This document shows, piece by piece, positions 553 to 55,266 of a stretch of 64,000 nucleotides of DNA. The stretch comes from a virus. The stretch's first letter is position 1. The number at the start of each line of letters is the position of its first letter. The stretch lies in IMG/VR virus record IMGVR_UViG_3300044959_000237, positions 32,001 through 96,000 of that record. One strand, given 5' to 3'. The notes below the pieces were generated by a model. That model did not search any database, was not told the DNA's origin, and saw only the letters and a program-made list of their open reading frames with translations. The position numbers were made by a program, and so were the translations under genes.

Positions 553-2508
553 ATGAAAAAAACCATTTTAAGAAACAATTACAGAAAAGCAGTAGAAATA
601 ATGGATTTTTCAGAATATATGGAAAAACTTAAAAAAGACAGAAGCTTTTACGCATCACCAGCAGAAAGATTACTCAAGGCGATAGGAGAACCGGAACTGA
701 TCAATACGAAAGAAGATACAAGATTATCCAAAATATTCGGAAACGAAACAATAAAGTTGTATCCTGCTTTCAAAGATTTTTATGGAATGGAAAAAACAAT
801 AGAAAATATCGTCAATTATTTCAAATTCGTAGCACAAGGTTTGGAAGAAAAAAAGCAGATTCTTTATTTGTTGGGACCAGTCGGAGGCGGTAAATCATCT
901 CTCGTAGAAAGAATAAAATATTTGATGGAAAAAGAACCGATATATGTTTTGGCTTTCGAAGTAAAAGACAAAGAAGGCAACAAAATAATTCAACATAGTC
1001 CGGTTTTCGAAAGTCCTCTGGGACTTTTTTCGAAAGAAAACGATGCAGAAATGTTACTGAGAGAATATGGTGTCGAATCGAGATATATTCCATCGGTGGC
1101 TTCCCCTTGGGCAATAAAAAGACTCGATGAAATTGATGGTGATGAATCGAAAATAAAAGTCGTAAAAATGTATCCATGCAGATTGAGGCAAATTGCCATA
1201 GCAAAAACGGAACCCGGTGATGAAAACAATACCGACGTCGGCTCTCTGGTCGGAAAACTCGATTTGAGAAAATTGAATATATATTCGCAAAACGATCCGG
1301 ATGCTTACAATTACTCCGGTGCTCTTTGCAGAGGAAATCAAGGCGTTGTAGATATAGTAGAAATATTCAAATCTCCGAAAGATACATTGCATCCTCTATT
1401 GACAGCCACTCAGGAAGGAAACTTTACCGGAACCGAAGAAATTGGCCCGATTCCGTTCTCGGGAATCATTCTTGCCCATTCGAATGAAACTGAATGGAAA
1501 AAATTTCGGAACAATCCGGCCAACGAAGCTTTCATAGATAGAATCTATAAAATAACCGTTCCTTATTGCCTGAGATATAGTGATGAAGTTAAAATATACA
1601 AAAAAATGCTTTCAGAAAGCAATTTGAAAGATGCTCAAACAGCACCACAAACATTGGAAACATTGGCACAATGGTCGGTTTTGACCAGATTGAAAGATCC
1701 TTCTACAGGATCCATTTATACAAAAATGAAAATTTACAATGGAGATTATATACAAAATACTGATCCGGCTGCAAAAACTTACAAGGATTATGTCGAGGAA
1801 GCCGGTTTGAATGAAGGAATGTTCGGCTCTTCGACAAGAACAGCTTTCAAACTTCTGAGTAAAACATACAATGCAGACAATGAAGAAATTGCAGCCGATC
1901 CAATAACATTGCTTTATATAATAGAAGAGCATATCGACAATGAACAATTGTCCGATGACATAAAAGAAAAATACAAATCTTTCATCAAACGTTATCTTGT
2001 TCCAAATTATTTCGAATTCATTTCGAATGAATTGAGAAAAGCATATCTTGAAAGTTACCATGATTATGGTCAGAACATTTTTGAAACATATTTTACATAC
2101 GCTGACAAGTGGTGTGACAACGAAGAATATGTGGATCCGGAAACAAAACAAACTTTTGATCGTGAATATTTGAACAAGGAACTGGAAAAAATTGAAAAAG
2201 CCGCAAATATTGCAAATCCGAAAGATTTCAGATTCGAAACGGTGAAATGGATTTACAGAAGAAAAGCCGATAATGACGGCAGAATGCCAGATTGGACAGA
2301 ATATGAAAAATTGAAAGATGTAATCGAGAAAAAAATGTTCGAAACAATCGATGATTTGCTGCCAGTAATTTCATTCAGTAAGAAATCGAGCAAGGAAATC
2401 GAAAAGAAACATGAGGAATTTGTAGATAGAATGATAAAAAAGGGTTATACCAAAAAACAAATCAAAAGATTGGTAGAATGGTTCATAAGAGTCAAGACGA
2501 ACAGGTAA
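553..2508 (+). CDS. prkA: PrkA/YeaG family AAA+ serine protein kinase/ATPase
   Basis: Walker A LLGPVGGGKSS, KTEPGDENN, YSGALCRGNQG, AHSNETEW; ATG at 553 preceded by AAGGT. Confidence 0.95.
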   Translation: MKKTILRNNYRKAVEIMDFSEYMEKLKKDRSFYASPAERLLKAIGEPELINTKEDTRLSKIFGNETIKLYPAFKDFYGMEKTIENIVNYFKFVAQGLEEKKQILYLLGPVGGGKSSLVERIKYLMEKEPIYVLAFEVKDKEGNKIIQHSPVFESPLGLFSKENDAEMLLREYGVESRYIPSVASPWAIKRLDEIDGDESKIKVVKMYPCRLRQIAIAKTEPGDENNTDVGSLVGKLDLRKLNIYSQNDPDAYNYSGALCRGNQGVVDIVEIFKSPKDTLHPLLTATQEGNFTGTEEIGPIPFSGIILAHSNETEWKKFRNNPANEAFIDRIYKITVPYCLRYSDEVKIYKKMLSESNLKDAQTAPQTLETLAQWSVLTRLKDPSTGSIYTKMKIYNGDYIQNTDPAAKTYKDYVEEAGLNEGMFGSSTRTAFKLLSKTYNADNEEIAADPITLLYIIEEHIDNEQLSDDIKEKYKSFIKRYLVPNYFEFISNELRKAYLESYHDYGQNIFETYFTYADKWCDNEEYVDPETKQTFDREYLNKELEKIEKAANIANPKDFRFETVKWIYRRKADNDGRMPDWTEYEKLKDVIEKKMFETIDDLLPVISFSKKSSKEIEKKHEEFVDRMIKKGYTKKQIKRLVEWFIRVKTNR

Positions 2509-2525
2509 CAACAAAAGTAATACAA

Positions 2526-3821
2526 ATGAAACATTACATAATAGATAGAAGAAAAAATCCAAAAGGTAAAAGTGTAACAAATCGACAGAAATTCATTGAA
2601 AAATACAAAAAACAAATAAAGGAAGTTGTCAAGAAATCAATAAAAGAAGGAAAAATTCAGGATATTGGAAATGATGGTGCAATTGTTACAATTCCGAAAG
2701 ATAATTTATCGGAACCGAATATCGATTATGACAGAAAAACCGGAAAAAAAGATCTGGTTGTTCCTCATAATCCCGGATACAATGAAGGAGATACTATTGA
2801 AAAACCCAAAGGAGGAGGCGGAAACGGTACAGGAAAGGGAAACGCTTCCGGTTCCGGAGAAGGCGAAGATCAGTTTCAATTCAAGATCAGTCGTGACGAA
2901 TTTTTCGACTTGCTTTTCGAAGATCTGGAATTACCAAATCTTGTAAAAAAGAAGTTCGAAGAACTTGAACAATTCAAGTTGAAAAGAGCCGGGTTCAAAA
3001 ATCGTGGTGATCCCGTAAATCTCGACATAAAACAAACTTTCAGAAAAAGTTACATGAGGCGAATAAGTCTCAATCGTCCAGATGAAAGTGAAATCGAAGA
3101 TTTGGAAGTAAAAATCAAAAACGAAAAAGACGAGAACAAGAAAAAGGAATTGATTCGACAACTCGAAGAAATGAAAAGAAAAATTTTAGAAATTCCTTTT
3201 CTCGACAATCTGGATTTGAAATTGAGAAATTTCGAACCCAGACCCTTGCCTTCGAATAGAGCCGTCATGTTTGCCATCATGGATGTTTCAGCATCCATGG
3301 ACGAAGAAAAAAAGACCATTTCCAAAATATTCTTTCTTCTTCTTTATACTTTTTTGAGAAAAAAATACGACAAGGTGGAAATAGTTTTCATAAGACATCA
3401 TTCTGTTGCAGAAGAAACAAACGAAGAAGACTTTTTTCACAAGAAAGAAACAGGTGGTACGGTTGTCAGTTCTGCTCTCGAACTGTCTTTGAAAATAATA
3501 GAAGAAAGATATTCGCCAGAAGAATGGAACATATATTTTTCTCAAAGTTCCGATGGTGACAATTACGAGACAGACAATTCCAAAGTTATTGCTTTGACAA
3601 ATAAAATTTTGGACATATGTCAGTATTTTGCTTATATAGAAATTGATACAAGATATTCCAATTACGATATCTGGAACATGAATACGATACGGGGAGAAAC
3701 AAGTTTGTGGAAAACTTACAAAAAGATCAATAATCCAATTCTTCAAATGTCTGTTATAAGAAACAGAAAAGAAATCTGGAACGTATTCAGAAGTTTGTTT
3801 TCGAAAAACGAAAAACAGTAA
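2526..3821 (+). CDS. yeaH: YeaH/YhbH (DUF444) vWA-domain protein
   Basis: N-terminal IIDRRKNPKGKS..NRQKF, Gly-rich linker, LFEDLELPNL, MIDAS-like MDVSASM, ETGGTVVSSA, SDGDN; directly downstream of yeaG. Confidence 0.93.
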   Translation: MKHYIIDRRKNPKGKSVTNRQKFIEKYKKQIKEVVKKSIKEGKIQDIGNDGAIVTIPKDNLSEPNIDYDRKTGKKDLVVPHNPGYNEGDTIEKPKGGGGNGTGKGNASGSGEGEDQFQFKISRDEFFDLLFEDLELPNLVKKKFEELEQFKLKRAGFKNRGDPVNLDIKQTFRKSYMRRISLNRPDESEIEDLEVKIKNEKDENKKKELIRQLEEMKRKILEIPFLDNLDLKLRNFEPRPLPSNRAVMFAIMDVSASMDEEKKTISKIFFLLLYTFLRKKYDKVEIVFIRHHSVAEETNEEDFFHKKETGGTVVSSALELSLKIIEERYSPEEWNIYFSQSSDGDNYETDNSKVIALTNKILDICQYFAYIEIDTRYSNYDIWNMNTIRGETSLWKTYKKINNPILQMSVIRNRKEIWNVFRSLFSKNEKQ

Positions 3822-3890
3822 ATTGCTCACAATTTCAGTTGCAGATTATCTGTAAAAATATCATGAAAAGTCGAAAAGAAAATTTTCGGA

Positions 3891-4546: not shown

Positions 4547-4572
4547 TTTTTTTCTCCCTTTTCGACAAAAGA

Positions 4573-4601
4573 AGAATACAGTAATAAAATAAAAATGTCA
4601 A
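4573..4601 (-). promoter_or_regulatory. sigma70-type promoter
   Basis: TTGACA-17 nt-TATTCT on the minus strand, 27 nt upstream of the 4546 ATG. Confidence 0.7.
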
Positions 4602-5564: not shown

Positions 5565-5566
5565 TA

Positions 5567-5595: not shown

Positions 5596-5650
5596 GACAA
5601 TGCAACGGGAAATTTTTTTCGATTGCAAATTTTTCTCGAATTTGTGAAAA

Positions 5651-19221: not shown

Positions 19222-19790
19222 TTTTTTTCTTTCAGTGAAAGAAGATTCATTTTAACGACAATCATCAATGCATAGGCATATGCGTGACTTTTCTTGAAGA
19301 AATAAGCATTTTCATTTTTTGATTTTTTCCATACCTCTTTCATTGCCATGTCTTTTGGTTTTTTTCTGAGATAGCTTTTTCCGGGACGAATTATGGCCAA
19401 AAATGCTGCCAATTCGTGAATATTACCGACCTGAAATTTTTGAAGATCGTCATAATAATTGTGAATATGTGGTAATTGTTGCACAATATCTTTTCTTTTC
19501 AAAAGATTCCAATCAGGAGTCATATTCAGCAAATAATCGAGTTCTTCTGGAGTTTCAATGTCAAAATAAGAATAATTGTTCAGAATATCTATTTTGTAAA
19601 AACCAAATTTTTCAGCTTTTTCATAGGAAATAGATGACAAATCTGTTTCTGGATCGACTGGAATATCTTGCAAATAAATTCCGGAAGGATGTTTCGATAC
19701 ATTGTTTTTCTTGATTACAGAAGCGTTTATGTAATTGTTCAATTTTTCGAGAAGATCGTTACGATCTTTGATATCGATATCGATATCCAT
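19218..19790 (-). CDS. minimal DNA polymerase III alpha (DnaE)-like catalytic core
   Basis: DIDID, KHPSGIYL, GFYKIDIL, IIRPG and FKKSHAYAY match DnaE palm/fingers motifs within ~190 aa. Confidence 0.85.
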   Translation of the reverse strand: MDIDIDIKDRNDLLEKLNNYINASVIKKNNVSKHPSGIYLQDIPVDPETDLSSISYEKAEKFGFYKIDILNNYSYFDIETPEELDYLLNMTPDWNLLKRKDIVQQLPHIHNYYDDLQKFQVGNIHELAAFLAIIRPGKSYLRKKPKDMAMKEVWKKSKNENAYFFKKSHAYAYALMIVVKMNLLSLKEKN

Positions 19791-19791
19791 T

Positions 19792-20193
19792 TCAGTTATC
19801 CACAAAAGTACAATGTGATGAAATACTGCATGAAAAGTAGTTATCGTATTTGTTTATTACTACTGATAAAGGATGAATTCCTGTTGTCATTTCATAGGAG
19901 ACCGCAAACAAGGCACAGAAAAATACAAAAGTTTTTGTAATTTCATTATCGAAATTCCGTCTTTTTTCATTACTATCCAGTTGCATATACATGTTGGCGT
20001 AAGATACCACAAATTGCAAGATCTTTTTTGGATCTTTTTCATCGAAAACTCTTTTTTTGATTTCAGAATCCATATGAGCAAATTTGTTTTTCATTTCTTC
20101 CATGAAATTCAAGATCGATTTTTTTTCTTCACTGTTCAAACTTATTACATATTCCGAATTACTATCGAGATCGTTGAGGTAATATGATATCAT
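19792..20193 (-). CDS. hypothetical protein
   Basis: 133-aa ORF with SD GGGAG. Confidence 0.65.
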   Translation of the reverse strand: MISYYLNDLDSNSEYVISLNSEEKKSILNFMEEMKNKFAHMDSEIKKRVFDEKDPKKILQFVVSYANMYMQLDSNEKRRNFDNEITKTFVFFCALFAVSYEMTTGIHPLSVVINKYDNYFSCSISSHCTFVDN

Positions 20194-29471: not shown

Positions 29472-29500
29472 ATTATATGTTTCACTTGTTCTGAATTCAA
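29472..29500 (-). promoter_or_regulatory. sigma70-type promoter for ssb
   Basis: TTGAAT-17 nt-TATAAT. Confidence 0.65.
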
Positions 29501-29621
29501 TATAAAAGTCGAACGAAAAAAAATTTTTCGTGAAACTTTTCAATTTGTTCGAAAAACAAAGCAAAATTCTTCCAAGTTTTCTAAAATGAATTTTCGAAAA
29601 AAAAAACTTGCAAGATACATT

Positions 29622-34928: not shown

Positions 34929-37214
34929 TTATTGATTTTTTGAAATTTCTTCATATACCTTTTTGATATCGAGCTTGTACAATTTCAATGCATTTTTTAC
35001 GACCATGAGCAATTTCAGAGCAAATTTCTTGTCTTTTTTCATTTCTTTGTACAATACGAAAAATCTTTCAATTTCACTTCTGGAAAGTTTGTCGCCAAAA
35101 ATTTCTTCTTTTATTTTTTCGTCCAAATCTTCAATTACAATATGATAATTTTCAGTCATTTTTTTTATCAAAACACGAGCAAATTCTTTTTCATCATTGG
35201 CTTTGATCAAATTTTCCTTGAAAGAGAACATTGTCATGAATATGAATTTCTTGATTTCATTCTGATGTTTTTCGAATTTTTTGGAAATTTTTCTTATGAA
35301 ATTCAATATTTCATCCGCTTTCTTGTTAATCAAATCATAATCTGCTATTCTTGTACTGAATTCTCGCTTTACTGATTTTTCGGTTTCAATTCTTTTCACA
35401 ACTGCTTTGACCATTTTTTTGATGGCTTCGTCGAATTTTGTATATTCTTTTATCGACGACTCCCATACAAGAAATGAAAATTTCAATATATTTCTTATTA
35501 TTTCTTCTTCTTTTTCCTCGTATTTTCTTCCTCCAAGAACTCGAAATTCTGCATAATTTTCGTTCTTTTTGACTCTTATGATTTTGTATTTTTCATCCCA
35601 GAAATCTTTCATTCGATCTTTGACATTATTCGAAAAATTCTCCCGATCTGTCAGAAATTTTTTCAAGAAAGAGTAAATTTCCTTACCCAATTCATTCAAA
35701 TTTTGAGTTTTGTAATAATTCTTCATTTCAAATGACAAAAATTTCATGAATTGTGGTTCCAATTCTTTGGTGAAAAAGATTCTTTGATCTTTTTCGTCGA
35801 AAATATCCAGAAGATAATCCAATGTTCCAAGAGTAAAAAGATAATTCGCATTCAAGCTTTTGAAATATGGCGAGGATGGATCTACAGATATGTTGACATG
35901 CAAGCCCGAAGTAGAAGTTGTTTCAAAATCGATTGACATATCATTTATGGAAATATTACCCTTCCTTATTGTTTCCAACACTTTTTTCAGAACTTCAACT
36001 GCTTGTGAAAAAGGTAAAGGCGGAGTTATAAGTTCAAGAGGCAGAGGAAATTTTTCTCTGTGAAATTCATATTCCAATAATTCCAGATTTTCGTTATTAT
36101 CAGTATCCAATACCGACGCATCATATTTGATTTGCAGATTGTCGACTTTTGTCGAATTAGTGAAGTATTTCAAAATATCTTTGGAAACACCTTGTGAAGA
36201 ATTATTTGCATAATTTCGTTCATACACGAATATCATTTGTTCCAACATGGAATTTTCGTCGAATGTATATTCTTCGAATTGGGAAAAACCTTCATGATCA
36301 TTGTCTTCATCATATTCTTCTTCATTGTTTCCATCGTAATTTTTCTGGTTTCCTTCATTATCCTGTTTGTATTTCCAAGGAAAAGATTCTATCATTTCTT
36401 CTTTCGACAATATTTTTTCCATTGGAACAATTGCCAGAAATTCAAATTCGAAACCAATCATAATCGAATTCAAATCCATATTTCGAATATCTTTTTTCTG
36501 AATATCGATTCTTTCATTCAAATCAATTCTATGATCGATGTTTTCCAAAGAAAGTTGTCTGCTTATTCTTTTATTCAGAAGATCGATCAATTTTTCCATG
36601 ATTCCTGTATTTCTGAGTAATTTGAATATGATATTTTCGGAAGAAAATTCGCCTCCTTTTTCAAGTCCGCTTTTTCTGAATTTTCTTATTTTTTCCAACA
36701 CTTTCTTTATAAATCTGTAATCTTCGTTTTGTTCGACTACCCGGTTTATCAAAAACAATATCTTTTGAAATTTTTTTCGAATTTCATCGACATTTATGTT
36801 TGGTTTTATATTTTTTGGTTCGATTATCCATTTGTTTTTCAATACCGAAAAAACACCAGAAGAAAAATGAGATTCGTCCATCAATTGAAAATATACTTCT
36901 ACTTCCAGTCCTTTGATTTTTATATCGTAGAGATTGTTCAATATTTTCTTTTCACAAGCCAGATATTTTTTATATAAATTTTTATTGTTTTCATCGATAT
37001 TCAAAATAATATGCAAATCGATATCACTGTAATCAGTGTAATTGAAATTTGCATTACTACCCGTAATGACAATATCTTTGACGTATTTTCTTGGTATTTC
37101 AGCTGATTTTATAAAAAAATCGGCAATTTTCAGAAGAGATTTCCTGATTTTCGGCTTCAATTCAAAATCATTCCAAAGAACGGGATTCAATTTTTTGTGA
37201 TATTCTATTTTCAT
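34929..37214 (-). CDS. fusion: pol-beta nucleotidyltransferase plus putative amidoligase (COOH-NH2 ligase)
   Basis: ITGSNANFNY..YSDIDLH, GGEFSSEN..FKLLR; then GFEFEF, YDASV, ELITPP, TSGLHVNIS, EFR. Confidence 0.78.
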   Translation of the reverse strand: MKIEYHKKLNPVLWNDFELKPKIRKSLLKIADFFIKSAEIPRKYVKDIVITGSNANFNYTDYSDIDLHIILNIDENNKNLYKKYLACEKKILNNLYDIKIKGLEVEVYFQLMDESHFSSGVFSVLKNKWIIEPKNIKPNINVDEIRKKFQKILFLINRVVEQNEDYRFIKKVLEKIRKFRKSGLEKGGEFSSENIIFKLLRNTGIMEKLIDLLNKRISRQLSLENIDHRIDLNERIDIQKKDIRNMDLNSIMIGFEFEFLAIVPMEKILSKEEMIESFPWKYKQDNEGNQKNYDGNNEEEYDEDNDHEGFSQFEEYTFDENSMLEQMIFVYERNYANNSSQGVSKDILKYFTNSTKVDNLQIKYDASVLDTDNNENLELLEYEFHREKFPLPLELITPPLPFSQAVEVLKKVLETIRKGNISINDMSIDFETTSTSGLHVNISVDPSSPYFKSLNANYLFTLGTLDYLLDIFDEKDQRIFFTKELEPQFMKFLSFEMKNYYKTQNLNELGKEIYSFLKKFLTDRENFSNNVKDRMKDFWDEKYKIIRVKKNENYAEFRVLGGRKYEEKEEEIIRNILKFSFLVWESSIKEYTKFDEAIKKMVKAVVKRIETEKSVKREFSTRIADYDLINKKADEILNFIRKISKKFEKHQNEIKKFIFMTMFSFKENLIKANDEKEFARVLIKKMTENYHIVIEDLDEKIKEEIFGDKLSRSEIERFFVLYKEMKKDKKFALKLLMVVKNALKLYKLDIKKVYEEISKNQ
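35451..35704. repeat. 254-bp direct repeat, copy 1
   Basis: Identical by eye to 37809..38062 (offset 2358). Confidence 0.85.
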
Positions 37215-37277
37215 TGTGAAAAACCTTCGATTTTTTATTTCTATTTATTTTCCGGTGACAATTTTCATAATATGATG

Positions 37278-38678
37278 TTATGAAAATTGAAAGTGTTTCG
37301 AAACTTCTTCGTATATTTTCCTGATATCGAGATTGTACAAATTCAATGCATTTCTTGCAATCAAAAACATTTTCAGAGCAAATTTTCTGTCTTTTTTCAT
37401 TTCATTGTACAAATTGATGAAATTTCCAATTTTGTTTTTAGGTTGATCAATACCAAAAATTTCTTTTCTTATTTTTTCGTTCAATTCTTTCAATGAAATG
37501 ATAAACGGACTGGTTATTTCTTTGATCAAAGAAGAGACAAATTGACTTTCATTTTTACTTTTGATCAAATTGTGTTTGAATACAAACATTACCATGAATA
37601 TGAATTGTTCGATTTCATTTCGATTTTTTTCGAATTTTCTGGAAATGTTATCGATAAAATTCAAAATTTCATTTGCTTTTTTATTGATTGATTCGTCTTC
37701 CAAGATTTCCAAATTCAACTTCTGTTTTTCTACTTTATCGACTTCAATGTATTTTGTAATTTCTTTCATCATTTTTCTGATGATATCGTCCATTTTTGTA
37801 TATCTGTCTATCGACGACTCCCATACAAGAAATGAAAATTTCAATATATTTCTTATTATTTCTTCTTCTTTTTCCTCGTATTTTCTTCCTCCAAGAACTC
37901 GAAATTCTGCATAATTTTCGTTCTTTTTGACTCTTATGATTTTGTATTTTTCATCCCAGAAATCTTTCATTCGATCTTTGACATTATTCGAAAAATTCTC
38001 CCGATCTGTCAGAAATTTTTTCAAGAAAGAGTAAATTTCCTTACCCAATTCATTCAAATTTTCGTTTTTGTAATAATCTTTTATTTCAGAGGCCAAAAAC
38101 TTCATGAACTCGGGGTTCAATTCCTTCGTGAAAATTCTTCTTCGATTTTCTTCGTCGAAAATATCCAGAAGATAATCCAATGTTCCAAGAGTAAAAAGAT
38201 AATTTGCATTCAAGCTTTTGAAATATGATGAGGATGAATCTACCGATATGTTGATATGCAAGCCCGAAGTAGGAGTTGTTTCCAAATTGATTGACATGTC
38301 ATCTGTTGTAATGCTACCTTTTCTTATTGTTTCCAACACTTTTTTCATAACTTCAATGGCTTGTGAAAAAGGCAAAGGCGAAGTTACAAGTTCCAATGGA
38401 AGAAGAATTTGTTTATCATCGATTTTTTGTTCCGATAGACCTATATATTCGAGAATATCAGAAGTGATACTCAGAACTGATTGATCGAATTTGAGTTCAA
38501 TATGTTCAACTTTTGTCAAATTAATCAAATACTTCAAAATTGTCTTTATTGCTTTTGATTTGGTTGATATTTTTTCTTTCATTACAACAGTTGCCAAAAA
38601 TTCGAATTCGAAACCAATTGAAACTGAATTAAAATTCATATTTCGAATATCTTTTTTTCCGAATATCGATTCTTTCAT
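37278..38678 (-). CDS. stand-alone putative amidoligase, paralogue of the C-terminal part of 34929..37214
   Basis: GFEFEF, FDQSV, ELVTSP, TSGLHINIS, YAEFRVLGG. Confidence 0.78.
   Translation of the reverse strand: MKESIFGKKDIRNMNFNSVSIGFEFEFLATVVMKEKISTKSKAIKTILKYLINLTKVEHIELKFDQSVLSITSDILEYIGLSEQKIDDKQILLPLELVTSPLPFSQAIEVMKKVLETIRKGSITTDDMSINLETTPTSGLHINISVDSSSSYFKSLNANYLFTLGTLDYLLDIFDEENRRRIFTKELNPEFMKFLASEIKDYYKNENLNELGKEIYSFLKKFLTDRENFSNNVKDRMKDFWDEKYKIIRVKKNENYAEFRVLGGRKYEEKEEEIIRNILKFSFLVWESSIDRYTKMDDIIRKMMKEITKYIEVDKVEKQKLNLEILEDESINKKANEILNFIDNISRKFEKNRNEIEQFIFMVMFVFKHNLIKSKNESQFVSSLIKEITSPFIISLKELNEKIRKEIFGIDQPKNKIGNFINLYNEMKKDRKFALKMFLIARNALNLYNLDIRKIYEEVSKHFQFS
37809..38062. repeat. 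254-bp direct repeat, copy 2
   Basis: Identical by eye to 35451..35704. Confidence 0.85.
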
Positions 38679-45950: not shown

Positions 45951-48900
45951 CTATGCAAACAATTCAGGAAAATAATTTTCGATGTTTTTCTGTCTGACAA
46001 TTCCATAACCCCTTACTTTCTCGATTCTGTCCATGTCTTTGTTCAACTCTTCCAAATTCAACTTTCCTATCAGATTCTTGTCCAAAATATCAAGAGCATA
46101 ATTTCGATATCTTTTATCGAGATCGTGTGTCGAATCCATGAATTCTGCAATTCCTGTCATGAAGTCGAAACCGGAAATCATTTTGAACAAAGGATAAACT
46201 ATCAGTCCATTGATGAATGTCTTGAGTTCCTTTTTTCTGTTCCAAGGAAGCATTATGCCTATTTTCACATTCGAAAGCACTCGAATTTTGTCCATCAGAT
46301 TCATGTTTTTCTCGAAAAGTGTGTTTTCTATGTAATTTATCCACAATTTGGATACTTCTTTCTCGTTCTTGACATAGAGAAGATCGAAATAAGACTTCAA
46401 AATTCTTCTTTTTATTTTATTTTCATGATTTTCATTTTCGAATTTCATTTTTTCGAGTATATTGTAAATTTCCTGCAATTTTTTTCTTTCTTTCGAATTC
46501 AATTTATCGATGTAAAGCTCGTAAAGATCTGAAATGGTCATTTCTTTTTCTTCGAAATCGAATGAATTTTTTCTCAAAAATTTGCCAAGTTTCAGTATTT
46601 CGATGTTTTTTTCAGCTTCGTTTCGGGAAAAATTGACTTTTATGCTTTTTATTACACTTTCCTCACTGAGAGGAAGATCTTCCAATGAAGAACCAAGCAA
46701 CAGAATGTTCAAAAAAGATTTTATTTCGTATTTTTTGGCAAATTTCATGAAATCGAAAGAAAATCCATTTTTCTTTCGTTTTATGTACTGTCTCATTTCA
46801 TCGATCATCTGTTCGACATTTTTTCCATGAACAATTTCTGGCATATTGTAGTAACCAAGATTTACCACAAATTTCTTTATGTCATTTTCGAAAAATTTAC
46901 CATAAGAACAGTAAAGATCACATCCAATGACAAGATCGTAAACCGAATCGGAAACACAGGAATTTGTTTCTTTGTTGAAAATCGAGATTCTGCCGGTAAC
47001 TTCTCCGAATCTTTGTGCCAACCCGGTTTGATCCATGGCTTTCACTTTGAATCCATCGAAAACGGCTGCATCACAGATGATTTTCGTCAGAGTACTGATA
47101 CCAGTTCCGCCAATACCAACTGTCAATATGTCGAAAGGTTTATCGATGTCATTTTTGTTTTTGATTGACAAATTATCTTCAATTTTTGGAAGCTCGATTC
47201 GTGATTTTCGATTGTTGTTTTCAATTATGGCAAAACTCGGGCAATGTCCTTCCAGACAACTGGTGTCCAAGTTACAGGAACTTTCATCGATTTTTCTTTT
47301 ATTTCCAAAAGGAGTATTTTCGACTTCTATGGCCAGACAATTGGATTTTCTGGAACAATCACCACAAGCATCACATATTTCGGAATTTATCATCACGGAA
47401 AAGTTTTCTTTTTTCAAAAGACCTCTTTTTTGTTTTCTTCTTTTTTCCGTAGCACACATCTGATCATATATTATTACCGAAACACCATCGATTTCTTTGG
47501 CTTTTTTCATTGCTTCATTCATTTTTTCCTTTGGAAGAATTTCAACTTCCGACGGAAAATTTGCCCAATTGTTTTCTCGAAAATAGTGACTTACCAAATA
47601 TATTTTTTCGACTTTTTCTGCCAGAAGCTGTTTTGTCAAATTCAACAAAGACAATTCACCATCCAATGGTTGTCCTCCCGTCATTGCAACGGCTTGATTG
47701 TACAATATTTTGTAAGTGATTTTTGTTCTGGCTGCTACGGCGGCTCTTATGGCAAGTATTCCGCTATGAAAATAGGTACCATCTCCCAAATTTACAAAAA
47801 TATGATCTCTTTTTGAAAATTTGGACGCAGATATCCAATTTACTCCTTCTGCTCCCATCGGACATACGGTTATTGTCGGCCTGTCCGGCATGAAATTGGC
47901 AAGATAATGACAACCTATTCCCAAAACAGCCATATCACCATTCAAAAGTTTTGTTCCGGTATTATGAGGACAACCGCCACAATAATAAGGGGTTCTTTTG
48001 ATCTGTTTCGAAATTTCCGATATTTGTTCGACATTTTCGATAATGTTCGAATTTTTTTCGAATGATGAATCTCTCAGATATTTTTTTATATCTCTGGTTT
48101 TCATATCCATCAAGGGAGAAACCAGATTCTTTCCGAAAATTCGAATTCTGATGAAATTTTCATTCAGAAATTTGTGTAAAAACAGCTCGAAAACTCCGCT
48201 TTTTTCTTCCAAAATCAATATTTCTTCTTTGTTTTTCAGAAATTCTTCCAATTTTTTCTTTTCCAACGGCCAAATACAACCAATTTTCAGCAGATCGAAA
48301 TTCATTTTACTCGAATCGTAATTGTAAATTTTCATCAAATTGTGAAAAACTTTTCCTACGACAATAACTCCTTTTCTGTTGTTTTCATTTTTTATTATTG
48401 TGTTTATTTCATTGCATTCCAAATATTTTTGCATTGCATGAATTTTCTGCTCGTGAATTCTTTTTTCTTGCTCCGGACCACTGTCTGGCCAACGTATCGA
48501 AACATCGAAGATTTCTCTTGGAACAAAGGGACGAAAAGATTTCAATTTTTCGAAATTTACCGTTTCATAAGCATCTGCCAGATCACTCACGATTTTCAAT
48601 GCGATCCAAGATCCTGAATAACGACTCAATTCGACTGCGTGAATTAGAAATTCTGATATTTCCTCTACACATGAAGGTGCCAGAACAGGAACATACCAAG
48701 ATACCAGCGTCAAAGTAGTTTCATGTGGCATTGTACTGCTTTTACAATTATGATCGTCACCACATAAAAGAACAACACCACCTTTAGGTGAACTTCCGGC
48801 AAAATTGAAATGATGAATATGATCGCCGGATCTGTCGACACCCGGACCTTTTCCATACCATATTCCTACAACTCCATCAGCATATTCTTCTTTTGCAGGA

Positions 48901-49178
48901 CCGAACAATTTGTAATTTTGTGTGCCGGCGATTACGGCGCAAGCCAGTTCTTCATTCAATCCGGCATGAAAATATATCTTGTTTTCATTGAGAATTTTTT
49001 CTTTGAATTTTATTTCCTTGTCAAGTGAACTCAAAGGACTGCCTCGATATCCACAAAACAATGTGGCGGTTTTGTAATTTTTCTCTTCATCCAATTTTCT
49101 TTGTAACAAAGAACCGAGTATGATCGATTGCAGTCCTGTCAAATTTTTTTCTTTATCATCGAACCAAAAAAAATTCAT
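45951..49178 (-). CDS. indolepyruvate:ferredoxin oxidoreductase, fused alpha/beta form
   Basis: GYRGSPL, NEELA, WYGKGPGVDRSGD, GDDH.CKSST, YCGGCPHN, GIGCH, TPP motif GDGTYFHSG..NQAVAMTGGQ, ferredoxin CDACGDC...C, GIGGTG, GLAQ, VRGYG; ATG 49178 after SD AAGGA. Confidence 0.93.
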   Translation of the reverse strand: MNFFWFDDKEKNLTGLQSIILGSLLQRKLDEEKNYKTATLFCGYRGSPLSSLDKEIKFKEKILNENKIYFHAGLNEELACAVIAGTQNYKLFGPAKEEYADGVVGIWYGKGPGVDRSGDHIHHFNFAGSSPKGGVVLLCGDDHNCKSSTMPHETTLTLVSWYVPVLAPSCVEEISEFLIHAVELSRYSGSWIALKIVSDLADAYETVNFEKLKSFRPFVPREIFDVSIRWPDSGPEQEKRIHEQKIHAMQKYLECNEINTIIKNENNRKGVIVVGKVFHNLMKIYNYDSSKMNFDLLKIGCIWPLEKKKLEEFLKNKEEILILEEKSGVFELFLHKFLNENFIRIRIFGKNLVSPLMDMKTRDIKKYLRDSSFEKNSNIIENVEQISEISKQIKRTPYYCGGCPHNTGTKLLNGDMAVLGIGCHYLANFMPDRPTITVCPMGAEGVNWISASKFSKRDHIFVNLGDGTYFHSGILAIRAAVAARTKITYKILYNQAVAMTGGQPLDGELSLLNLTKQLLAEKVEKIYLVSHYFRENNWANFPSEVEILPKEKMNEAMKKAKEIDGVSVIIYDQMCATEKRRKQKRGLLKKENFSVMINSEICDACGDCSRKSNCLAIEVENTPFGNKRKIDESSCNLDTSCLEGHCPSFAIIENNNRKSRIELPKIEDNLSIKNKNDIDKPFDILTVGIGGTGISTLTKIICDAAVFDGFKVKAMDQTGLAQRFGEVTGRISIFNKETNSCVSDSVYDLVIGCDLYCSYGKFFENDIKKFVVNLGYYNMPEIVHGKNVEQMIDEMRQYIKRKKNGFSFDFMKFAKKYEIKSFLNILLLGSSLEDLPLSEESVIKSIKVNFSRNEAEKNIEILKLGKFLRKNSFDFEEKEMTISDLYELYIDKLNSKERKKLQEIYNILEKMKFENENHENKIKRRILKSYFDLLYVKNEKEVSKLWINYIENTLFEKNMNLMDKIRVLSNVKIGIMLPWNRKKELKTFINGLIVYPLFKMISGFDFMTGIAEFMDSTHDLDKRYRNYALDILDKNLIGKLNLEELNKDMDRIEKVRGYGIVRQKNIENYFPELFA

Positions 49179-50029: not shown

Positions 50030-51844
50030 TTAAAATTCGAACAATTCCGACAATTCCGTATTGTCCAATATCGGATCGATGTTCCAATCTTCCAGAGCAG
50101 AGAAAAGATTTTTCAGCTTTTTGTTTACAATCGTGTTTTCCATTTCATCGGTATCCACTTGAAAATTTTTCAACCATTCCGGTAAATGTTCGATATCGAA
50201 TGGCAAAGCCAGACTTTTGATGTCATGAACATTCTTTTTAAGAAAGAAAACCAGCACTTTTGCTCCATCGACAATCTGTGAGGAAACATAGTCCCTGTAA
50301 TATTTTTTCATTTCGTTCCAATTTATGGATGCCATGACATGTCCCGGTATTCTCGGTGATTTCAATTGATCTATGTATTTTTTCAATTTGATTTTTTCTT
50401 TTTTGTCAATTGTGTTTTTCAGAAGTTTTTCATATTCGTGGATCACTTTTTCATCTTTGGATTCTTCGTACAGTTTCGTGTAAAATTCGAGTTTGTTGAC
50501 TTTTTTTGGATATCCTTTCTGCCAATCCGGCATTTTTCTGAAATCTTTTTTGAATTTTTTGATTTTCGAAAAAATATGATTCTTGTCTTTATTGGACAAA
50601 ATATCATAGAGAAGTTCTTCCAGAAACTTTTGTACAAAAATTGGTGTATCGGAACGTTTCAGTTCCAAACCCATGGCCTTGATTTCACCCAATTTACCAT
50701 TTTTGTCCAATCTTTTTCCTTCTTTGTCGAAACATAACAGGGCATATCTCTTTTTTGTAATAAAATAACCTTTGGATGCCACAATTTCTCTTGCTGCCCT
50801 TATGTTTGCAAATTCTTCCCTGACATTGAACTCGTTTTTCATGAATTCGTTGAAAGATTCGTTTACAAGTTGAGCAACTTCATCGTAAAGTTTTATCGAA
50901 TTTTCTTTGGTCCATTCGATATCCGAAAATTCTTTCAAATGATAAGCACTGAAATAAGAAGAATTGTGAACCAGAATTCTGTTTGCAAAAAACCACGGCA
51001 TCTTTTTACTGATACCAATATCGTACACATGATTGTATTCTTTTCCCAACATTACAACACTTTCGAGATACGTTTCCTGAATATCACCGGAATAATCTAC
51101 TATCAAAATGGGTTTTTCTGACATTTTTTTGAATTTTTTTTCGTCGAGAAGAATTTTCGGACTGAATTTAATCAGTCTGTTGTTTTTTTTATTCCAATAT
51201 AAAAGACTGTGATCTTCCGTAACTTTTACGGTATTTCCGCTGAGTAATTTTATTTGATAGATTTCCTTGTCTACATAATGTCGATATATATAATCGAATC
51301 CTGTTTCTGTCATGAAACAATTCTTTTTATCGAAACTGGCTACTTTCAGAAAATCGGAGCAGGCATATTCCTTGTTTTTCGAAAAATATTTTTTCTCACA
51401 AAGATCGAAAAGATCTTTTATATCTATTTCACCGACATTGGTTATGATTTTGGTATCTTCCGTAACACTGTCCGTATCTCCATACAATATTGCTTTTCCT
51501 TCGTGATCGTACTCTCCGGTCAGAATTTCGTTTATTTTTGCATTCATGTGTTTGGTAATACATCTTCCGGTCATTGTCACACTTTGTCCGATTCTGTTAT
51601 CGGCAAATTTCATATGTTGATTCAACAATGATCCATAAACGGAATTGAGTAGAATTTTCGTAGCATATTGACGAAAATCGAAGTTTTCTGCCAGAATTCT
51701 GGTTTGATTTCTGTTTTTGCTCAAAAGTTTGCCATCTTTTATTTCAAGATTGTACTTTTTCATGATTTCGCTCAGTTTTTTCAAATCTTTTTCTTTTATG
51801 ATTTCTTCGATATTCAATATATCTTCGTAACTTTCGAGATTCAT
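50030..51844 (-). CDS. family B DNA polymerase, C-terminal subunit (gp43B-like), intein-containing
   Basis: Motif B KILLNSVYG, motif C YGDTD|S, KKRYA, MGLELKRSDTP; ATG at 51844 overlaps the upstream TGA (ATGA), SD GGAG. Confidence 0.92.
   Translation of the reverse strand: MNLESYEDILNIEEIIKEKDLKKLSEIMKKYNLEIKDGKLLSKNRNQTRILAENFDFRQYATKILLNSVYGSLLNQHMKFADNRIGQSVTMTGRCITKHMNAKINEILTGEYDHEGKAILYGDTDSVTEDTKIITNVGEIDIKDLFDLCEKKYFSKNKEYACSDFLKVASFDKKNCFMTETGFDYIYRHYVDKEIYQIKLLSGNTVKVTEDHSLLYWNKKNNRLIKFSPKILLDEKKFKKMSEKPILIVDYSGDIQETYLESVVMLGKEYNHVYDIGISKKMPWFFANRILVHNSSYFSAYHLKEFSDIEWTKENSIKLYDEVAQLVNESFNEFMKNEFNVREEFANIRAAREIVASKGYFITKKRYALLCFDKEGKRLDKNGKLGEIKAMGLELKRSDTPIFVQKFLEELLYDILSNKDKNHIFSKIKKFKKDFRKMPDWQKGYPKKVNKLEFYTKLYEESKDEKVIHEYEKLLKNTIDKKEKIKLKKYIDQLKSPRIPGHVMASINWNEMKKYYRDYVSSQIVDGAKVLVFFLKKNVHDIKSLALPFDIEHLPEWLKNFQVDTDEMENTIVNKKLKNLFSALEDWNIDPILDNTELSELFEF
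50963..51469 (-). mobile_element. 169-aa mini-intein at the pol-c site
   Basis: Starts SVTEDT after YGDTD; block B VTEDHSL; block F VYDI; ends FFAN.ILVHN followed by Ser; no LAGLIDADG domain. Confidence 0.92.
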
Positions 51845-53562
51845 TGTTTCATCTTCTCCAAAATTTCTTCCGGTAACTCGAAACCGTCTTCGGACAGTTT
51901 GAAAAATATTTTTGCCAATCTCTGTAACTTTTTTCGATTTGTGAACCATTCTTCGAGAAGTATCGGAACAAGTCCTTTTTTATCCATGATGAATATGGTT
52001 CCATTTGCACTCAAACTCAGATCTTTTCCACCAAAGATCATTTCGTATATTTCTTTTGCTTTCAATTCGTAAATTTCTTTTGTATCGTTCATTTCAAGTT
52101 GCAGAATATCATCTGTCTGTAACATGATCATGTTATATTCCAGTATTCCGAACAGATCGTGCATTGCTTCCGATGCGGTTTTGCATCCTTCTTTTATTTT
52201 GTTGAGAATGAAATTATTTGTATATGTAGGCAAAACCTGAGCAAATATCTTTTCCGGACTCATATTCAAGCTTCTGATGATCGAAGGATAAAGAGAGTTT
52301 ATATCCACGCTTCCGACAAAATCATGCAGACCTTTTTTCGGATATATGACAAAAGCGCCGGCAACACTTTCATCTTTATCTTCGTTTTCACTTTCATTTT
52401 CGTCTTCGTTTTCTTCACTATCATTCGAAACAATTCGATTTGTAAAATTGACTTTTTCCCAATGATGAATGAAATCTTTGTCCGGACATACCATTTTCAA
52501 ATCGTGAGATTTTAACGTCAAAGCTTGTTCGATCAAAGAGATGCTGCCAAGAGTAGTGGGAAGTGTCACACAGTTGAGATGAGAAACGATGTTACTCAAT
52601 TCGAGATATTTTTTCTTCTGATCTATTTTGTAAAGAATCATGACGTCCTGTTTGGAATATTCGATGAATTTTCTGAAATCGTTCCTGTACAAATCATCCA
52701 ATGTTCCTTTGTATGCTACCTTCTTTTCACCAATTTCCTTTTCTCCTATGAAATCCAGTTTGTAACTTGGAACTTCTGACAATGAATGTTTCATGTACAA
52801 TTCGAGATAATCCATATGATGTCTTCCAGACAACTCATAGGTAAGAAAATCTTTGTTGAATTGTGTAAATATTCTTCTTTTCGGAGGAGGAAAATTTTCC
52901 AGACAAAGTCTTTTTATTTCATTTTCTCCTAATATTATTTTCGTTCTCTCCACAATATAAGGAATATCGTATTTTTTCGAATTCCAACCGGTCAAAACAT
53001 CAACATCTTGTATATATTTCAAAAATTCGTCGAGTAAGTTTTCTTCATTGTCGAATATGAAAACATCTTCCAATCCTTCAAGTTCCTTTTCTGCCTGTTT
53101 CCTGTTCATTGTTTTTGGATACAAAGTAAATGTCATATTATGTTTTTCATATGTTGTATATATTGAAATTGTACATATTCGGTTCGTAGGTTTTTCCGGA
53201 ACGGCAAAACCTCCATTTTCCAAATCGAATTCGACTTCGATATCGAAAAATCCTATATTCAATTCAGGAAGCTCGGAATTTCTGTAATATTTCTCCAAAA
53301 TTTTGTTTTCAATTGAAATATCACTTTCAAATGTTCGTATTCCATTCTGTCTTGTTTTTTTCAATTCGAAATAGAACTTTTTGAGATCCTTGAACTCCTT
53401 TTTTTTGGCTTTTGTTCCAAAAAGAGTATTGTACATTCCATTGTCGTCTTCATAGTAGAATTCCAAAACAGGATCGTATGTTTTTACAATTCGTTTTCTG
53501 TTTTTTCTTTCAGAAACGAAAACCTTGTTTTTTTCTTTGTCATAATGAACATCTACATACAT
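51841..53562 (-). CDS. family B DNA polymerase, N-terminal subunit (3'-5' exonuclease plus motif A; gp43A-like)
   Basis: Exo I FDIE, Exo II GWNS..YDIPY, Exo III YSKQDV, motif A DINSLYPSII. Confidence 0.92.
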   Translation of the reverse strand: MYVDVHYDKEKNKVFVSERKNRKRIVKTYDPVLEFYYEDDNGMYNTLFGTKAKKKEFKDLKKFYFELKKTRQNGIRTFESDISIENKILEKYYRNSELPELNIGFFDIEVEFDLENGGFAVPEKPTNRICTISIYTTYEKHNMTFTLYPKTMNRKQAEKELEGLEDVFIFDNEENLLDEFLKYIQDVDVLTGWNSKKYDIPYIVERTKIILGENEIKRLCLENFPPPKRRIFTQFNKDFLTYELSGRHHMDYLELYMKHSLSEVPSYKLDFIGEKEIGEKKVAYKGTLDDLYRNDFRKFIEYSKQDVMILYKIDQKKKYLELSNIVSHLNCVTLPTTLGSISLIEQALTLKSHDLKMVCPDKDFIHHWEKVNFTNRIVSNDSEENEDENESENEDKDESVAGAFVIYPKKGLHDFVGSVDINSLYPSIIRSLNMSPEKIFAQVLPTYTNNFILNKIKEGCKTASEAMHDLFGILEYNMIMLQTDDILQLEMNDTKEIYELKAKEIYEMIFGGKDLSLSANGTIFIMDKKGLVPILLEEWFTNRKKLQRLAKIFFKLSEDGFELPEEILEKMKQ

Positions 53563-53614
53563 GATTTTTTACCGATATTTCTTTAAACCGAGAATCGATT
53601 TTTTCTACTTGTGT

Positions 53615-53643
53615 ATTATATTTTTCACAAAACGGAAAATCAA
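53615..53643 (-). promoter_or_regulatory. sigma70-type promoter for the polymerase operon
   Basis: TTGATT-17 nt-TATAAT. Confidence 0.65.
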
Positions 53644-53652
53644 TAAAGGAAC

Positions 53653-53712
53653 AATTGAACTTCATTGAAATTGAAGTTCAATTTTCGAAATTTTTCGAAA
53701 ATTTTTTCGAAA
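53653..53712. repeat. 12-bp inverted repeat followed by three TTTTCGAAA units
   Basis: AATTGAACTTCA/TGAAGTTCAATT; TTTTCGAAA at 53682, 53692 and 53704. Confidence 0.6.
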
Positions 53713-53760
53713 ATTCAATAATTGAAAAATTGATTTTTTTTTTTGAAAATCTTGAAATTT

Positions 53761-55266
53761 CTAGGAAATTTTCTTTCTTTTTTTCACAACATCGTTTTCA
53801 TCTACGAAAATTATTTCGATAGGAAATCCCCACAAATCTTTCAAATTGGATAATGCCATGTAACTTTCTTTGCTCAAATCCATATTATTGTACATATTGT
53901 ATTGTAAGGTCATCACTCTGTCACCGACCAATTTGATATTTTTTACGAAAATATCGGGAAAAAACATGATTGGTGAATAATTGTTTGCAAGAGTTTTTCT
54001 TATTTCTCTGTAACCTCTTTCATTGTGTATTTTTTCCACCAGATAACTGTTTTTGGAAGAATCATCATGTATTTTTATCAATTTGTTGTCCCGAATGAAC
54101 TTTGGTGTCAGAAACTGTTGAATAAAGCTATCATCGCGATAATTTTTTACTGTATTCAAAATGACATCTTTCCAATTTTTTCCAGTCAGATAAGGAAAAT
54201 ACTCCGAATCTTCTTCTGTAGGATTTTCACAAATTCTTTTTATTTCCATGAACATATGAAAACCAAGATAGTAAGGATTGAAATTTGGATTCAAAACACC
54301 GAGATCTGGTTGATTTACAACCGCTGTATGCAAATCTATGAATTCCAACATCGAACCATCTGTAATGAGACCTTTTTCCCATAAACGATACATTATGTAA
54401 TAATGAACGAAACAAGCGAAACCTTCATTCATTACTTTGGTAAGTATTTGAGGATAGAAATATTCTGCAATTTTTCTTACAATTCTTACAATTTCTTTCT
54501 GCCAATCTTTCAGAACAAGACTGTTTTTCTCTATAACATAAAGAATATTTTCTTCATCCAAATGTTTTGTAAACTTTTCTTCCAAATTTTCATTTTTGTT
54601 TTTTTCTTTTTCCTTTTTTATCATCCAATCGGTGGTTTTTTCCATGAAATGATCATAGTTTTCTTCCAAAAGTTTTATTTTTTGTTGTAAAATATAATGT
54701 TCTTTCTGAACATTTGTTTTTTTCTTTTTTATTTTGTTGATTCCCATGAACATGAGAGAATGGCATTTGTCCAACAATTCTTCTACTTCATCACCATATT
54801 TTTCTTCACACTTTCTAATGTAATCTTTTGCAAAAGTCAAATATTGCAAAATGAAATCCGCATGAGTCTGTTCTCTGAACAAATAATTGTTCTTGAAAAA
54901 ATGATTGTGACCAAAAGCAGCATGAGCAATTACCAATAGTTGTGTCGTGGCGGTGTTGTTTTCCATCAGATAATTTATACAAGGATTGGAATTTATTACC
55001 ATTTCGTATGCCAACGGCATACCTTTTCTGAATTCTTTCTGATGTACAAGAAACTTTTTACCAAATGACCAGTGATTGTAAAATATTGGCATTCCATTGC
55101 TTGCATAAGCATCCAGCATTTGTTCACTGGTAACAATTTCTATTACGTTCGGATATGTATCCAGATTCAACTCTTCTTTAGCTATTTCTTCACATAGCTC
55201 CAATGATTTTTCTATAAACTCGAAATTCCACTCCGAACCGGTATAAAATGGTTTGTTTTTCGACAT
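53761..55266 (-). CDS. ycgB: SpoVR/YcgB family protein
   Basis: EQMLDAYAS.GMP..Y.HWSFGK, LAYEMVINSNPC, AHAAFGHNHFFKNN, TKVMNEGFA, NPYYLGF, DDSFIQQFL. Confidence 0.95.
   Translation of the reverse strand: MSKNKPFYTGSEWNFEFIEKSLELCEEIAKEELNLDTYPNVIEIVTSEQMLDAYASNGMPIFYNHWSFGKKFLVHQKEFRKGMPLAYEMVINSNPCINYLMENNTATTQLLVIAHAAFGHNHFFKNNYLFREQTHADFILQYLTFAKDYIRKCEEKYGDEVEELLDKCHSLMFMGINKIKKKKTNVQKEHYILQQKIKLLEENYDHFMEKTTDWMIKKEKEKNKNENLEEKFTKHLDEENILYVIEKNSLVLKDWQKEIVRIVRKIAEYFYPQILTKVMNEGFACFVHYYIMYRLWEKGLITDGSMLEFIDLHTAVVNQPDLGVLNPNFNPYYLGFHMFMEIKRICENPTEEDSEYFPYLTGKNWKDVILNTVKNYRDDSFIQQFLTPKFIRDNKLIKIHDDSSKNSYLVEKIHNERGYREIRKTLANNYSPIMFFPDIFVKNIKLVGDRVMTLQYNMYNNMDLSKESYMALSNLKDLWGFPIEIIFVDENDVVKKRKKIS

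Follow-up and report, generated by a model that had tools for sequence, protein, structure and literature searches.

An intact PrkA-YeaH-SpoVR system split into two halves in a large T4-like phage

Organization of the locus

The stretch of DNA analysed here (the window, 64,000 nucleotides) comprises bases 32001-96000 of one linear IMG/VR virus record of 111,268 bp (IMGVR_UViG_3300044959_000237). It encodes the PrkA(YeaG)-YeaH-SpoVR(YcgB) trio in two separate halves: prkA and yeaH adjoin on the plus strand and spoVR is located 50 kb away on the minus strand, and hence the three genes are neither adjacent nor co-directed. An earlier note on this DNA, made from the sequence alone, had described an intact yeaG-yeaH tandem, spoVR about 50 kb off and a dps gene, all among phage genes. 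Pfam searches confirm this description, to which the strand of spoVR, unstated there, is added below.

553-2508, plus strand: prkA (yeaG), 651 aa, AAA+ ATPase with a PrkA C-terminal domain
2526-3821, plus strand: yeaH, 431 aa, DUF444 protein with a vWA-type metal-ion-dependent adhesion site (MIDAS) motif
53761-55266, minus strand: spoVR (ycgB), 501 aa
63235-63717, plus strand: Dps-like mini-ferritin, 160 aa, divergent, with ferroxidase-site residues

PrkA matches AAA_PrkA (PF08298, 515 bits, residues 18-384) and PrkA_C (PF06798, 194 bits, residues 389-643), and scores 973 bits with the NCBIfam equivalog model NF011999, far above its cut-off of 576. Its Walker A motif, GPVGGGKS at residue 108, is the same as that of E. 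coli YeaG, with which it shares 58% identity; the best named bacterial PrkA proteins are 58-60% identical, 60% being the maximum to any named bacterium. YeaH matches DUF444 (PF04285, 486 bits) and exceeds the cut-off of the NCBIfam model NF003707 (513 bits, cut-off 396), and its MIDAS motif is complete (D253-x-S255-x-S257, T312, S342-D343-G344). Since yeaH starts 17 nt past the prkA stop codon, the two genes are taken as a bicistronic unit. SpoVR lies above the Pfam cut-offs for both SpoVR (PF04293, 450 bits) and SpoVR_C (PF24755, 41 bits), and with 617 bits below the cut-off of 679 of the NCBIfam equivalog NF008737. It is a divergent member, belonging to the family at the Pfam level and not at the NCBI equivalog level.

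Three PDB entries of a 692-aa 'serine protein kinase' of the PrkA family (9xip, 9xiq and 9xir; 30 chains in all) match the window PrkA with an E-value of 1e-48. No publication on them was found in the literature searched. These structures may reveal the PrkA oligomer and any protease site.

Integrity, common origin and selection of the trio

Of the near-invariant columns (at least 95% conserved among about 210 homologues), 93-98% are kept by the trio: 114 of 118 in PrkA, 43 of 44 in YeaH and 53 of 57 in SpoVR. The conserved His/Glu cluster of SpoVR is formed by H65, E88, H115, H120, E162, N280-E281-G282, H288 and D378.

The earlier note had named incongruent gene origins, relaxed selection and a host-phage chimera as findings that would speak against a working three-part system in the phage. 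One tree was built for each of PrkA, YeaH and SpoVR (92-104 rows, FastTree only), and all three trees place the window protein within one and the same small clade, made up of metagenome contigs (support 96-100). The closest members of this clade are 81% (PrkA), 73% (SpoVR) and 69% (YeaH) identical to the window proteins. The top matches of the three protein searches come from contigs of equal size and source, and it is from this equality that PrkA, YeaH and SpoVR proteins of the clade were assigned to shared contigs. The origins are thus congruent, and the three genes appear to share one origin. Scans of metagenome and genome contigs with peptide patterns specific to the window returned distant PrkA types alone (27-57%), and none of the variants of 90% identity or more, which are located on JGI contigs of 23,075 and 18,729 bp.

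The possibility was considered that the record is a host-phage chimera, or that the genes are recent captures without function. In favour of it, the deposited record of Enterobacter phage LAU1 is simply a prophage whose host flank includes yeaGH, and one IMG/VR carrier of the trio is classed as a provirus. In the window, however, core phage genes border both prkA-yeaH and spoVR, and the composition and codon usage of the trio are indistinguishable from the rest of the phage: its GC content at third codon positions is within 0.1 standard deviation (sd) of the contig mean (z-scores about 0), and its relative synonymous codon usage correlates with that of the other genes at 0.87-0.89 (long genes elsewhere in the phage have a median of 0.90). 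The identity of at most 60% to any named bacterium, and the conservation of residues and synteny across many phages, point the same way. The trio is neither a host-phage chimera nor a recent capture, and an artefact or passenger of this type is barely credible.

Protein-level distance ratios to the nearest relatives served as the proxy for selection. The SpoVR/PrkA ratio is 1.49 (typical median 1.82, 5-95% range 1.48-2.24) and the YeaH/PrkA ratio 1.48 (typical median 2.36, 5-95% range 1.80-2.91). As both ratios are at or below the usual range, the detached spoVR is not evolving faster than expected and no sign of relaxed selection is seen in them. The genes are intact and conserved, appear to share one origin and have become fully adapted to their phage, and the earlier note was therefore right to infer that selection has kept the three-part system working after its separation.

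The trio in other phages and in cells

A scan of IMG/VR for spoVR yielded at least 113 contigs. In nearly all of the 80 spoVR contigs examined prkA, yeaH and spoVR are contiguous, and in some they lie directly upstream of the DNA polymerase gene. The carriers include Gp23-encoding records of 322, 342 and 578 kb which are 90-100% complete. Among deposited phages, a trio of the proteobacterial type is present in Ralstonia phage RsoM2USA (contiguous, ORF30-29-28) and in three huge-phage assemblies: the genes adjoin in LR745206, are separated by gaps in LR756504, and in LR756502 have spoVR at a distance of 243 kb. Thermus phages and LR756511 have a trio of a divergent type. Phages of the Thermus phiYS40/TMA type, on record since 2006 (accession date), encode a PrkA 'serine kinase' and vWA/DUF444-like proteins; their PrkA is only 25-29% identical to the window PrkA and so represents a different subtype, and SpoVR was detected among Thermus phages in phiLo only, in part.

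The trio genes of RsoM2USA appear in an annotation table (PMC8504454), and spoVR is included among auxiliary genes for 'sporulation' in a study of marine viromes (PMC8940887); no paper treating the phage trio as a module was found in the literature searched. The phage trio is therefore not new, being known but unstudied, and the novelty of the finding is lower than had been assumed at first.

In comparison to E. coli yeaGH and ycgB, the window copies belong to the same three families, at or near the equivalog level, and retain the Walker A motif, the MIDAS and the SpoVR His/Glu cluster of the cellular module. The layout is also alike, with yeaG-yeaH in tandem and ycgB elsewhere. In contrast to the cellular module of Pseudomonadota, the window copies reside in a lytic-looking T4-like jumbo phage of 31% GC, are at most 60% identical, and stand behind phage motifs rather than under RpoS or NtrC control. 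The best explanation of these features is that the trio is an old, selected auxiliary system, probably orthologous to the cellular YeaG(PrkA/SpdA)-YeaH-YcgB(SpoVR) module.

Promoter-like motifs and transcription units

The heptamer ATAAATA is found at 55 sites on both strands of the contig, and 27 of these are intergenic and at most 100 nt upstream of a start codon on the same strand, intergenic DNA being 7.5% of the contig. Of the 93 upstream segments 24 contain it, whereas shuffled sequences give 5.9 on average (sd 2.3) and none of 1000 shuffles reaches 24; it is also the commonest among the 21 arrangements of its seven letters. Genes preceded by it include those of the lysozyme and the tail tube (both with the full TATAAATA), three virion-type proteins and many ORFans. 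All PHROG-annotated genes after the motif are virion or lysis genes, and no replication gene is preceded by it. ATAAATA is thus a genuine motif of this phage. A strain relative (L143, IMGVR_UViG_3300020567_000294), aligned to window positions 57331-64000 from the large terminase gene (TerL) to beyond dps with 94.6% nucleotide identity, has both motif cores of the tube-dps spacer unchanged and the flanking bases varied. In L143 another base stands in place of the first T of the tail-tube motif, and this shows the 7-mer to be the core. In the late-promoter test with the T4-type TATAAATA box, the first T being free, the corresponding segments are GATAAATA for spoVR, AATAAATA for dps and GTTAAATA for prkA. 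The signals around the trio and the Dps-like gene are as follows.

55291-55297, minus strand: ATAAATA of spoVR, 24 nt before the spoVR ATG
55314-55342, minus strand: sigma-70-like TTGACC-17-TACAAT, 10/12 matches, upstream of the spoVR motif
53653-53683, minus strand: hairpin of 12 pairs and T-rich tail, in the gap from the spoVR stop to the PolB start
63188-63194, plus strand: ATAAATA of the Dps-like gene, 40 nt before the dps ATG
189-552, plus strand: prkA leader, 364 nt, with AAAATCATGAWA copies, TTCGAA repeats and a TTAAATA variant

The motif of spoVR shares an 80-nt divergent region with the lysozyme TATAAATA (55306-55313, plus strand), and the 61-nt spacer that holds the dps motif also contains the tail-tube motif, on its other strand. 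Sigma-70-like sites in the spoVR region are no commoner than chance (15 against 10.9, sd 3.3, in shuffles). Taken with the hairpin at its end, spoVR reads as a monocistronic unit with a terminator-like end.

The prkA leader is different in character. The variant TTAAATA at 505-511, 41 nt before the prkA ATG, is one mismatch from ATAAATA, and as there are only 7 such sites (4 of them upstream and intergenic) its meaning is uncertain. Three of the five AAAATCATGAWA sites of the window are located in the leader, at 250, 356 and 456 with a spacing of about 100 nt; 0.77 sites would be expected in the whole window. A possible 48-codon hydrophobic open reading frame (ORF; 362-508) ends inside the TTAAATA, and TTCGAA repeats at about 394-458 resemble those upstream of PolB.

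The TTCGAA palindrome is itself abundant, with 398 copies in the whole contig as compared to about 38 expected from the base composition. Arrays of TTCGAAAAA are present upstream of PolB, primase and other genes, and examples of TTCGAA can be seen at 394-458 and 53570-53760 of the window. They might serve as another regulatory signal, or reflect the action of a modification or restriction system.

The motif positions given in the earlier note, ATAAATA before spoVR and dps and TTAAATA at 505-511 before yeaG, are all correct. Its suggestion that the system has been rewired to late control holds in part: spoVR and the Dps-like gene carry the late-type motif, which makes late control of these two genes plausible, and prkA-yeaH has only the one-mismatch variant. 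Two observations here weigh against the overall explanation given below. As prkA-yeaH lacks an exact ATAAATA, the two halves may not be co-expressed; and in a set of 64 related phage operons the DNA upstream of prkA shows no excess of T4-type late motifs, with 5 on the coding strand and 9 on the other, a clear one being present in L073, L085, L087 and LR745206 only. No late motif was found at the detached spoVR of LR756502.

Late-type signals also bear on the idea that the AAA+/vWA pair acts like MoxR-vWA pairs as a virion-assembly chaperone, maturing a structural complex or inserting a cofactor into it. The ATAAATA before spoVR fits such a role, and prkA follows directly after an ATAAATA-driven virion-like block (a 968-aa protein with head-decoration and tail-fibre PHROG matches). 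In many phages, however, the trio is part of the replication and not of the structural module, and ORF28-30 are not among the abundant virion bands of RsoM2USA, of which only about 10 were analysed. Since the trio reaches or nearly reaches the cellular equivalog models and keeps 93-98% of the near-invariant columns, a cellular activity is favoured over a new structural client, and we regard an assembly chaperone as very improbable.

Origin of the split layout

The contiguous trios of RsoM2USA, LR745206, LR756504 and the comparison phages L062-L064 and L068 are often located beside DNA polymerase or terminase. In the window the same trio has its operon broken, with spoVR 50 kb off on the other strand behind a motif of its own and followed by its own hairpin. 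On a single strand of L062-L064 and L068, prkA-yeaH-spoVR-PolB-UvsX-gp41 follow one another with little space between the genes. Reading the minus strand of the window from 55.3 kb downwards, we find spoVR, PolB (N- and C-terminal parts), clamp, gp32, UvsX, primase and gp41. When 3.9-55.3 kb is flipped, the window becomes collinear with these four phages. A single inversion is the most economical explanation because this flip restores the contiguous arrangement. The proposed segment, of which the breakpoints were inferred and not mapped, is given below.

3891-55266, no strand: proposed inverted segment, with the replication module (gp41, primase, UvsW, UvsX, gp32, indolepyruvate:ferredoxin oxidoreductase (IOR), clamp and split PolB) and spoVR at its end

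A similar inversion, with its breakpoint after spoVR, is seen in L023. Gene order therefore tips the balance slightly towards an ancestral prkA-yeaH-spoVR operon directly upstream of the polymerase, whose halves would have been split by one inversion of about 51 kb with one of its breakpoints between yeaH and spoVR. Several facts weigh against this scenario. The comparison phages are distant, their PolB being 25-33% identical; the trio is placed before the terminase in L011-L013, L016-L017 and L090; and the nearest relative seemingly has prkA and spoVR on one 17-kb Logan contig (17,162 bp). The two closest relatives, on Logan contigs of 17,162 and 10,628 bp, have PrkA proteins 81% and 77% identical to that of the window. 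No inverted or direct repeat longer than 12 nt is present at the proposed breakpoints.

In E. coli yeaGH and ycgB are about 630 kb apart, therefore the system tolerates separation. Elsewhere among the records seen, a split layout occurs only in LR756502 and perhaps in L075. The description of the system as dispersed, made in the earlier note, is thus right in that the halves are separated; the layout is better accounted for by one rearrangement of a contiguous ancestral operon, and E. coli is split in a like manner. As the trio itself is already widespread in phages, the new element here is the split, and what is particular to this phage is the split trio together with the separately signalled spoVR. 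Phages that retain all three genes provide independent evidence that the products form one obligate unit, and here that unit has outlived the break of its operon.

Predicted fold of SpoVR

An AlphaFold model of the window SpoVR (predicted local distance difference test 82.7, predicted template modelling score 0.82) was compared by VIA-align over residues of about 8-397. The top 49 matches are nearly all catalytic domains of zincin metallopeptidases or their fold relatives (DUF885, M1 aminopeptidases/LTA4 hydrolase, M2, M3, M4, M9, M30, M32, M36, M49 and M61), with Z-scores of 13.4-6.3 over 170-210 residues and of 13.4-10 for DUF885 and M1. An M1-like N280-E281-G282-W motif is located 160 residues downstream of H115-AAFG-H120. 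Against a zincin assignment stand the absence of HExxH from SpoVR, which has H115-AAFG-H120 instead, the helical nature of the model, since helical models reach Z of about 13 by chance, and a Foldseek search of the PDB which gave nothing at E<=0.001. Because the Z-scores are in the chance range for a helical model and Foldseek is silent, the zincin-peptidase-like fold of SpoVR is a lead, not a result. No paper linking SpoVR/YcgB to zincins was found in the literature searched. If correct, the prediction would offer a concrete hypothesis for the peptidase component that is still missing.

Proposed function in protein turnover

T4-like phages recycle host DNA into nucleotides. To our knowledge, no phage-encoded recycling of host protein to amino acids and energy has been described, and we know of no assigned biochemical role for YeaH or SpoVR.

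In bacteria, yeaG, yeaH and ycgB show cofitness (r>0.7) in six species; most bacteria have them in one operon, and E. coli has them apart (bioRxiv 10.1101/072470). PrkA of B. subtilis is an ATP-dependent protease which is sensitive to phenylmethylsulfonyl fluoride and needs the Walker A lysine K108; neither kinase nor autophosphorylation activity was seen with it, and the P-loop in its C-terminal part is degenerate (PMC9512850). E. coli YeaG, renamed SpdA, is required in starvation for a largely non-specific degradation of cytoplasmic proteins (SPD) which supplies amino acids and ATP, and the module was tied to this bulk proteolysis only in October 2026 (PMC13684143).

By analogy, the trio products may work in the phage as in cells, as one ATP-driven protein-turnover machine which degrades host protein; we hold this tentatively, a little short of an even chance. 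PrkA would be the AAA+ motor or a Lon-like protease, YeaH a vWA/MIDAS adaptor, and SpoVR a zincin-like subunit, possibly the peptidase. Such a machine would degrade host cytoplasmic protein non-specifically during infection, and the freed amino acids and energy might help a jumbo phage to meet its heavy need for virion protein when hosts are poorly fed and infection is long. Turnover of host protein would then be the protein counterpart of T4-type recycling of host DNA. Two reports weigh against this role. SPD in E. coli consumes no more than a few percent of the total protein in an hour (PMC13684143), a pace that might make a difference only with a long latent period; and YeaG has also been reported as a protein kinase (among the works that PMC9512850 cites).

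The kinase report belongs to a signalling explanation, in which PrkA, partnered by YeaH and SpoVR, is a Ser/Thr kinase that phosphorylates host targets and brings about or maintains a starvation-like or dormant state favouring a long infection. YeaG autophosphorylation and phosphorylation of AceA have been reported (as summarised in PMC9512850), yeaG mutants are reported to behave differently under nitrogen starvation (PMC4664914), the cofitness study took the trio as a signalling pathway (10.1101/072470), and the carrier RsoM2USA has a latent period of 270 min. However, the B. subtilis enzyme lacks kinase and autophosphorylation activity and has a degenerate C-terminal P-loop (PMC9512850), the yeaG phenotype has been ascribed to bulk proteolysis (PMC13684143), and the predicted zincin-like fold of SpoVR together with the MIDAS-bearing YeaH would be more in keeping with a machine for proteolysis or remodelling than with a cascade of kinases. 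Signalling is an unlikely function. The dormancy and MoxR-type chaperone ideas of the earlier note find no specific support here, and both proteolysis studies (PMC13684143, PMC9512850) point to protein turnover instead.

Proteolysis could also be targeted, removing specific host proteins (defence factors, regulators such as RpoS, or ribosome hibernation factors) and not the bulk proteome. PrkA of B. subtilis acts on the regulation of sporulation (PMC9512850), Lon-type proteases usually have specific regulatory substrates, and a vWA/MIDAS protein could be a substrate-selecting adaptor. Yet none of the 4 proteins matches a PADLOC defence model, the neighbouring genes suggest no context of defence or counter-defence, and turnover in E. 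coli is largely non-specific (PMC13684143). A targeted or counter-defence role is accordingly quite improbable, more so than signalling.

Non-specific turnover of host protein is therefore retained as the preferred function. The explanation as a whole, an orthologous trio in a T4-like jumbo phage, split by an inversion and serving protein turnover, is in our judgement about equally balanced between right and wrong. In a more far-reaching form, which we consider speculative and rather doubtful, large phages would possess their own tripartite ATP-driven bulk protease (PrkA motor, YeaH vWA adaptor and zincin-like SpoVR) that liquidates the host proteome late in infection, the Dps-like ferritin would mop up iron and protect replicating DNA, and the fused IOR would turn aromatic amino acids into energy. 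Degraded metalloproteins would be the source of the iron and the Dps-like ferritin its scavenger. RsoM2USA is culturable and thus a compact system for asking whether liquidation of the host proteome sustains long infections in starved cells.

Dps-like ferritin

The Dps-like protein matches Pfam Ferritin (PF00210) with 44 bits (cut-off 24.5) and scores below all NCBIfam Dps equivalogs (NF006975, 37.6 bits against a cut-off of 114). It keeps the HW..H..D..E ferroxidase pattern when aligned to 8ff9 and 1ji4, and its PDB matches are Dps and NAP chains only. The gene is under purifying selection: comparison with L143 gives a dN/dS of 0.12, and structural genes beside it span 0.03-0.13. Its matches among cultured phages are three records, all of Synechococcus phages. 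The Dps proteins of S-SRM01 and S-EIVl resemble it in the ferritin-like four-helix form, a length of about 160 aa and the Dps ferroxidase pattern; they share 26-28% identity with it and only the N-terminal half aligns well.

A Dps homologue is detectable in only three of the 15 trio-carrying phage records. Dps as a fixed companion of the trio is rejected on this count, and its inclusion in one module with the trio, as first proposed, is not upheld. The gene is best treated as a separate stress-type gene which occasionally co-occurs with the trio.

Features of the phage genome

CheckV estimates the completeness of the 111-kb record as 35%, therefore the whole phage genome is probably roughly 300 kb. 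Core phage genes in the window are those for a gp41-like helicase, primase, a UvsW-like helicase, UvsX and gp32, besides the split PolB, lysozyme, large terminase and tail tube. This gene content is best explained by a large jumbo phage which is T4-like and of the Gp23 lineage. The nearest cultured phages by polymerase are SCTP-2, the RaK2 group, Atu_ph07 and Phosso (36-46% identity). Megablast of both halves against 50,697 phage records gave no nucleotide-level match, a PolB_N scan of IMG/VR returned no close relative, and the sole near relative in a TerL scan is an 8-kb strain fragment ending 227 bp short of the spoVR side. Over seven genes the window and L143 differ with dS of about 0.17-0.33 and dN/dS of 0.03-0.13, and this strain would be of use for population-level tests.

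The family-B PolB is encoded by two overlapping ORFs of 573 and 639 aa (window 50030-53562, minus strand; overlap 51841-51949); its counterpart in L063 is a single gene of 829 aa. Directly behind the sliding-clamp gene lies the fused IOR family protein of 1075 aa (window 45951-49178, minus strand), which scores 826 bits with NCBIfam NF009589 (cut-off 816) and has the Pfam domains POR and TPP_enzyme_C. None of the 5 other large trio-carrying phages has an IOR, and it was rejected as a companion of the trio.

Some 29 kb ahead of the window (L002:2923-3249, contig bases 2923-3249, minus strand) ARAGORN finds a permuted two-piece transfer-messenger RNA (tmRNA) with the tag peptide ANDNVAKMALAA. 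A phage-encoded permuted tmRNA hints at an alphaproteobacterial-like host, and it is a second link of this phage to protein tagging and degradation. The catalytic subunit of aspartate carbamoyltransferase, an auxiliary, aspartate-consuming gene of pyrimidine synthesis, is also present outside the window (L003:3243-4136, contig 19243-20136, minus strand; TIGR00670, 303 bits, cut-off 237).

Amidoligase_2 domains occur in two adjoining large proteins (window 34929-38678, minus strand), of which one also has a nucleotidyltransferase domain; the first of the two is preceded by ATAAATA. A tRNA-Glu(UUC) of 99 nt is called by ARAGORN at 29493-29591 (minus strand), with the anticodon at position 39. 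It is unusually long and may contain an insertion or an intron, or may be a false call.

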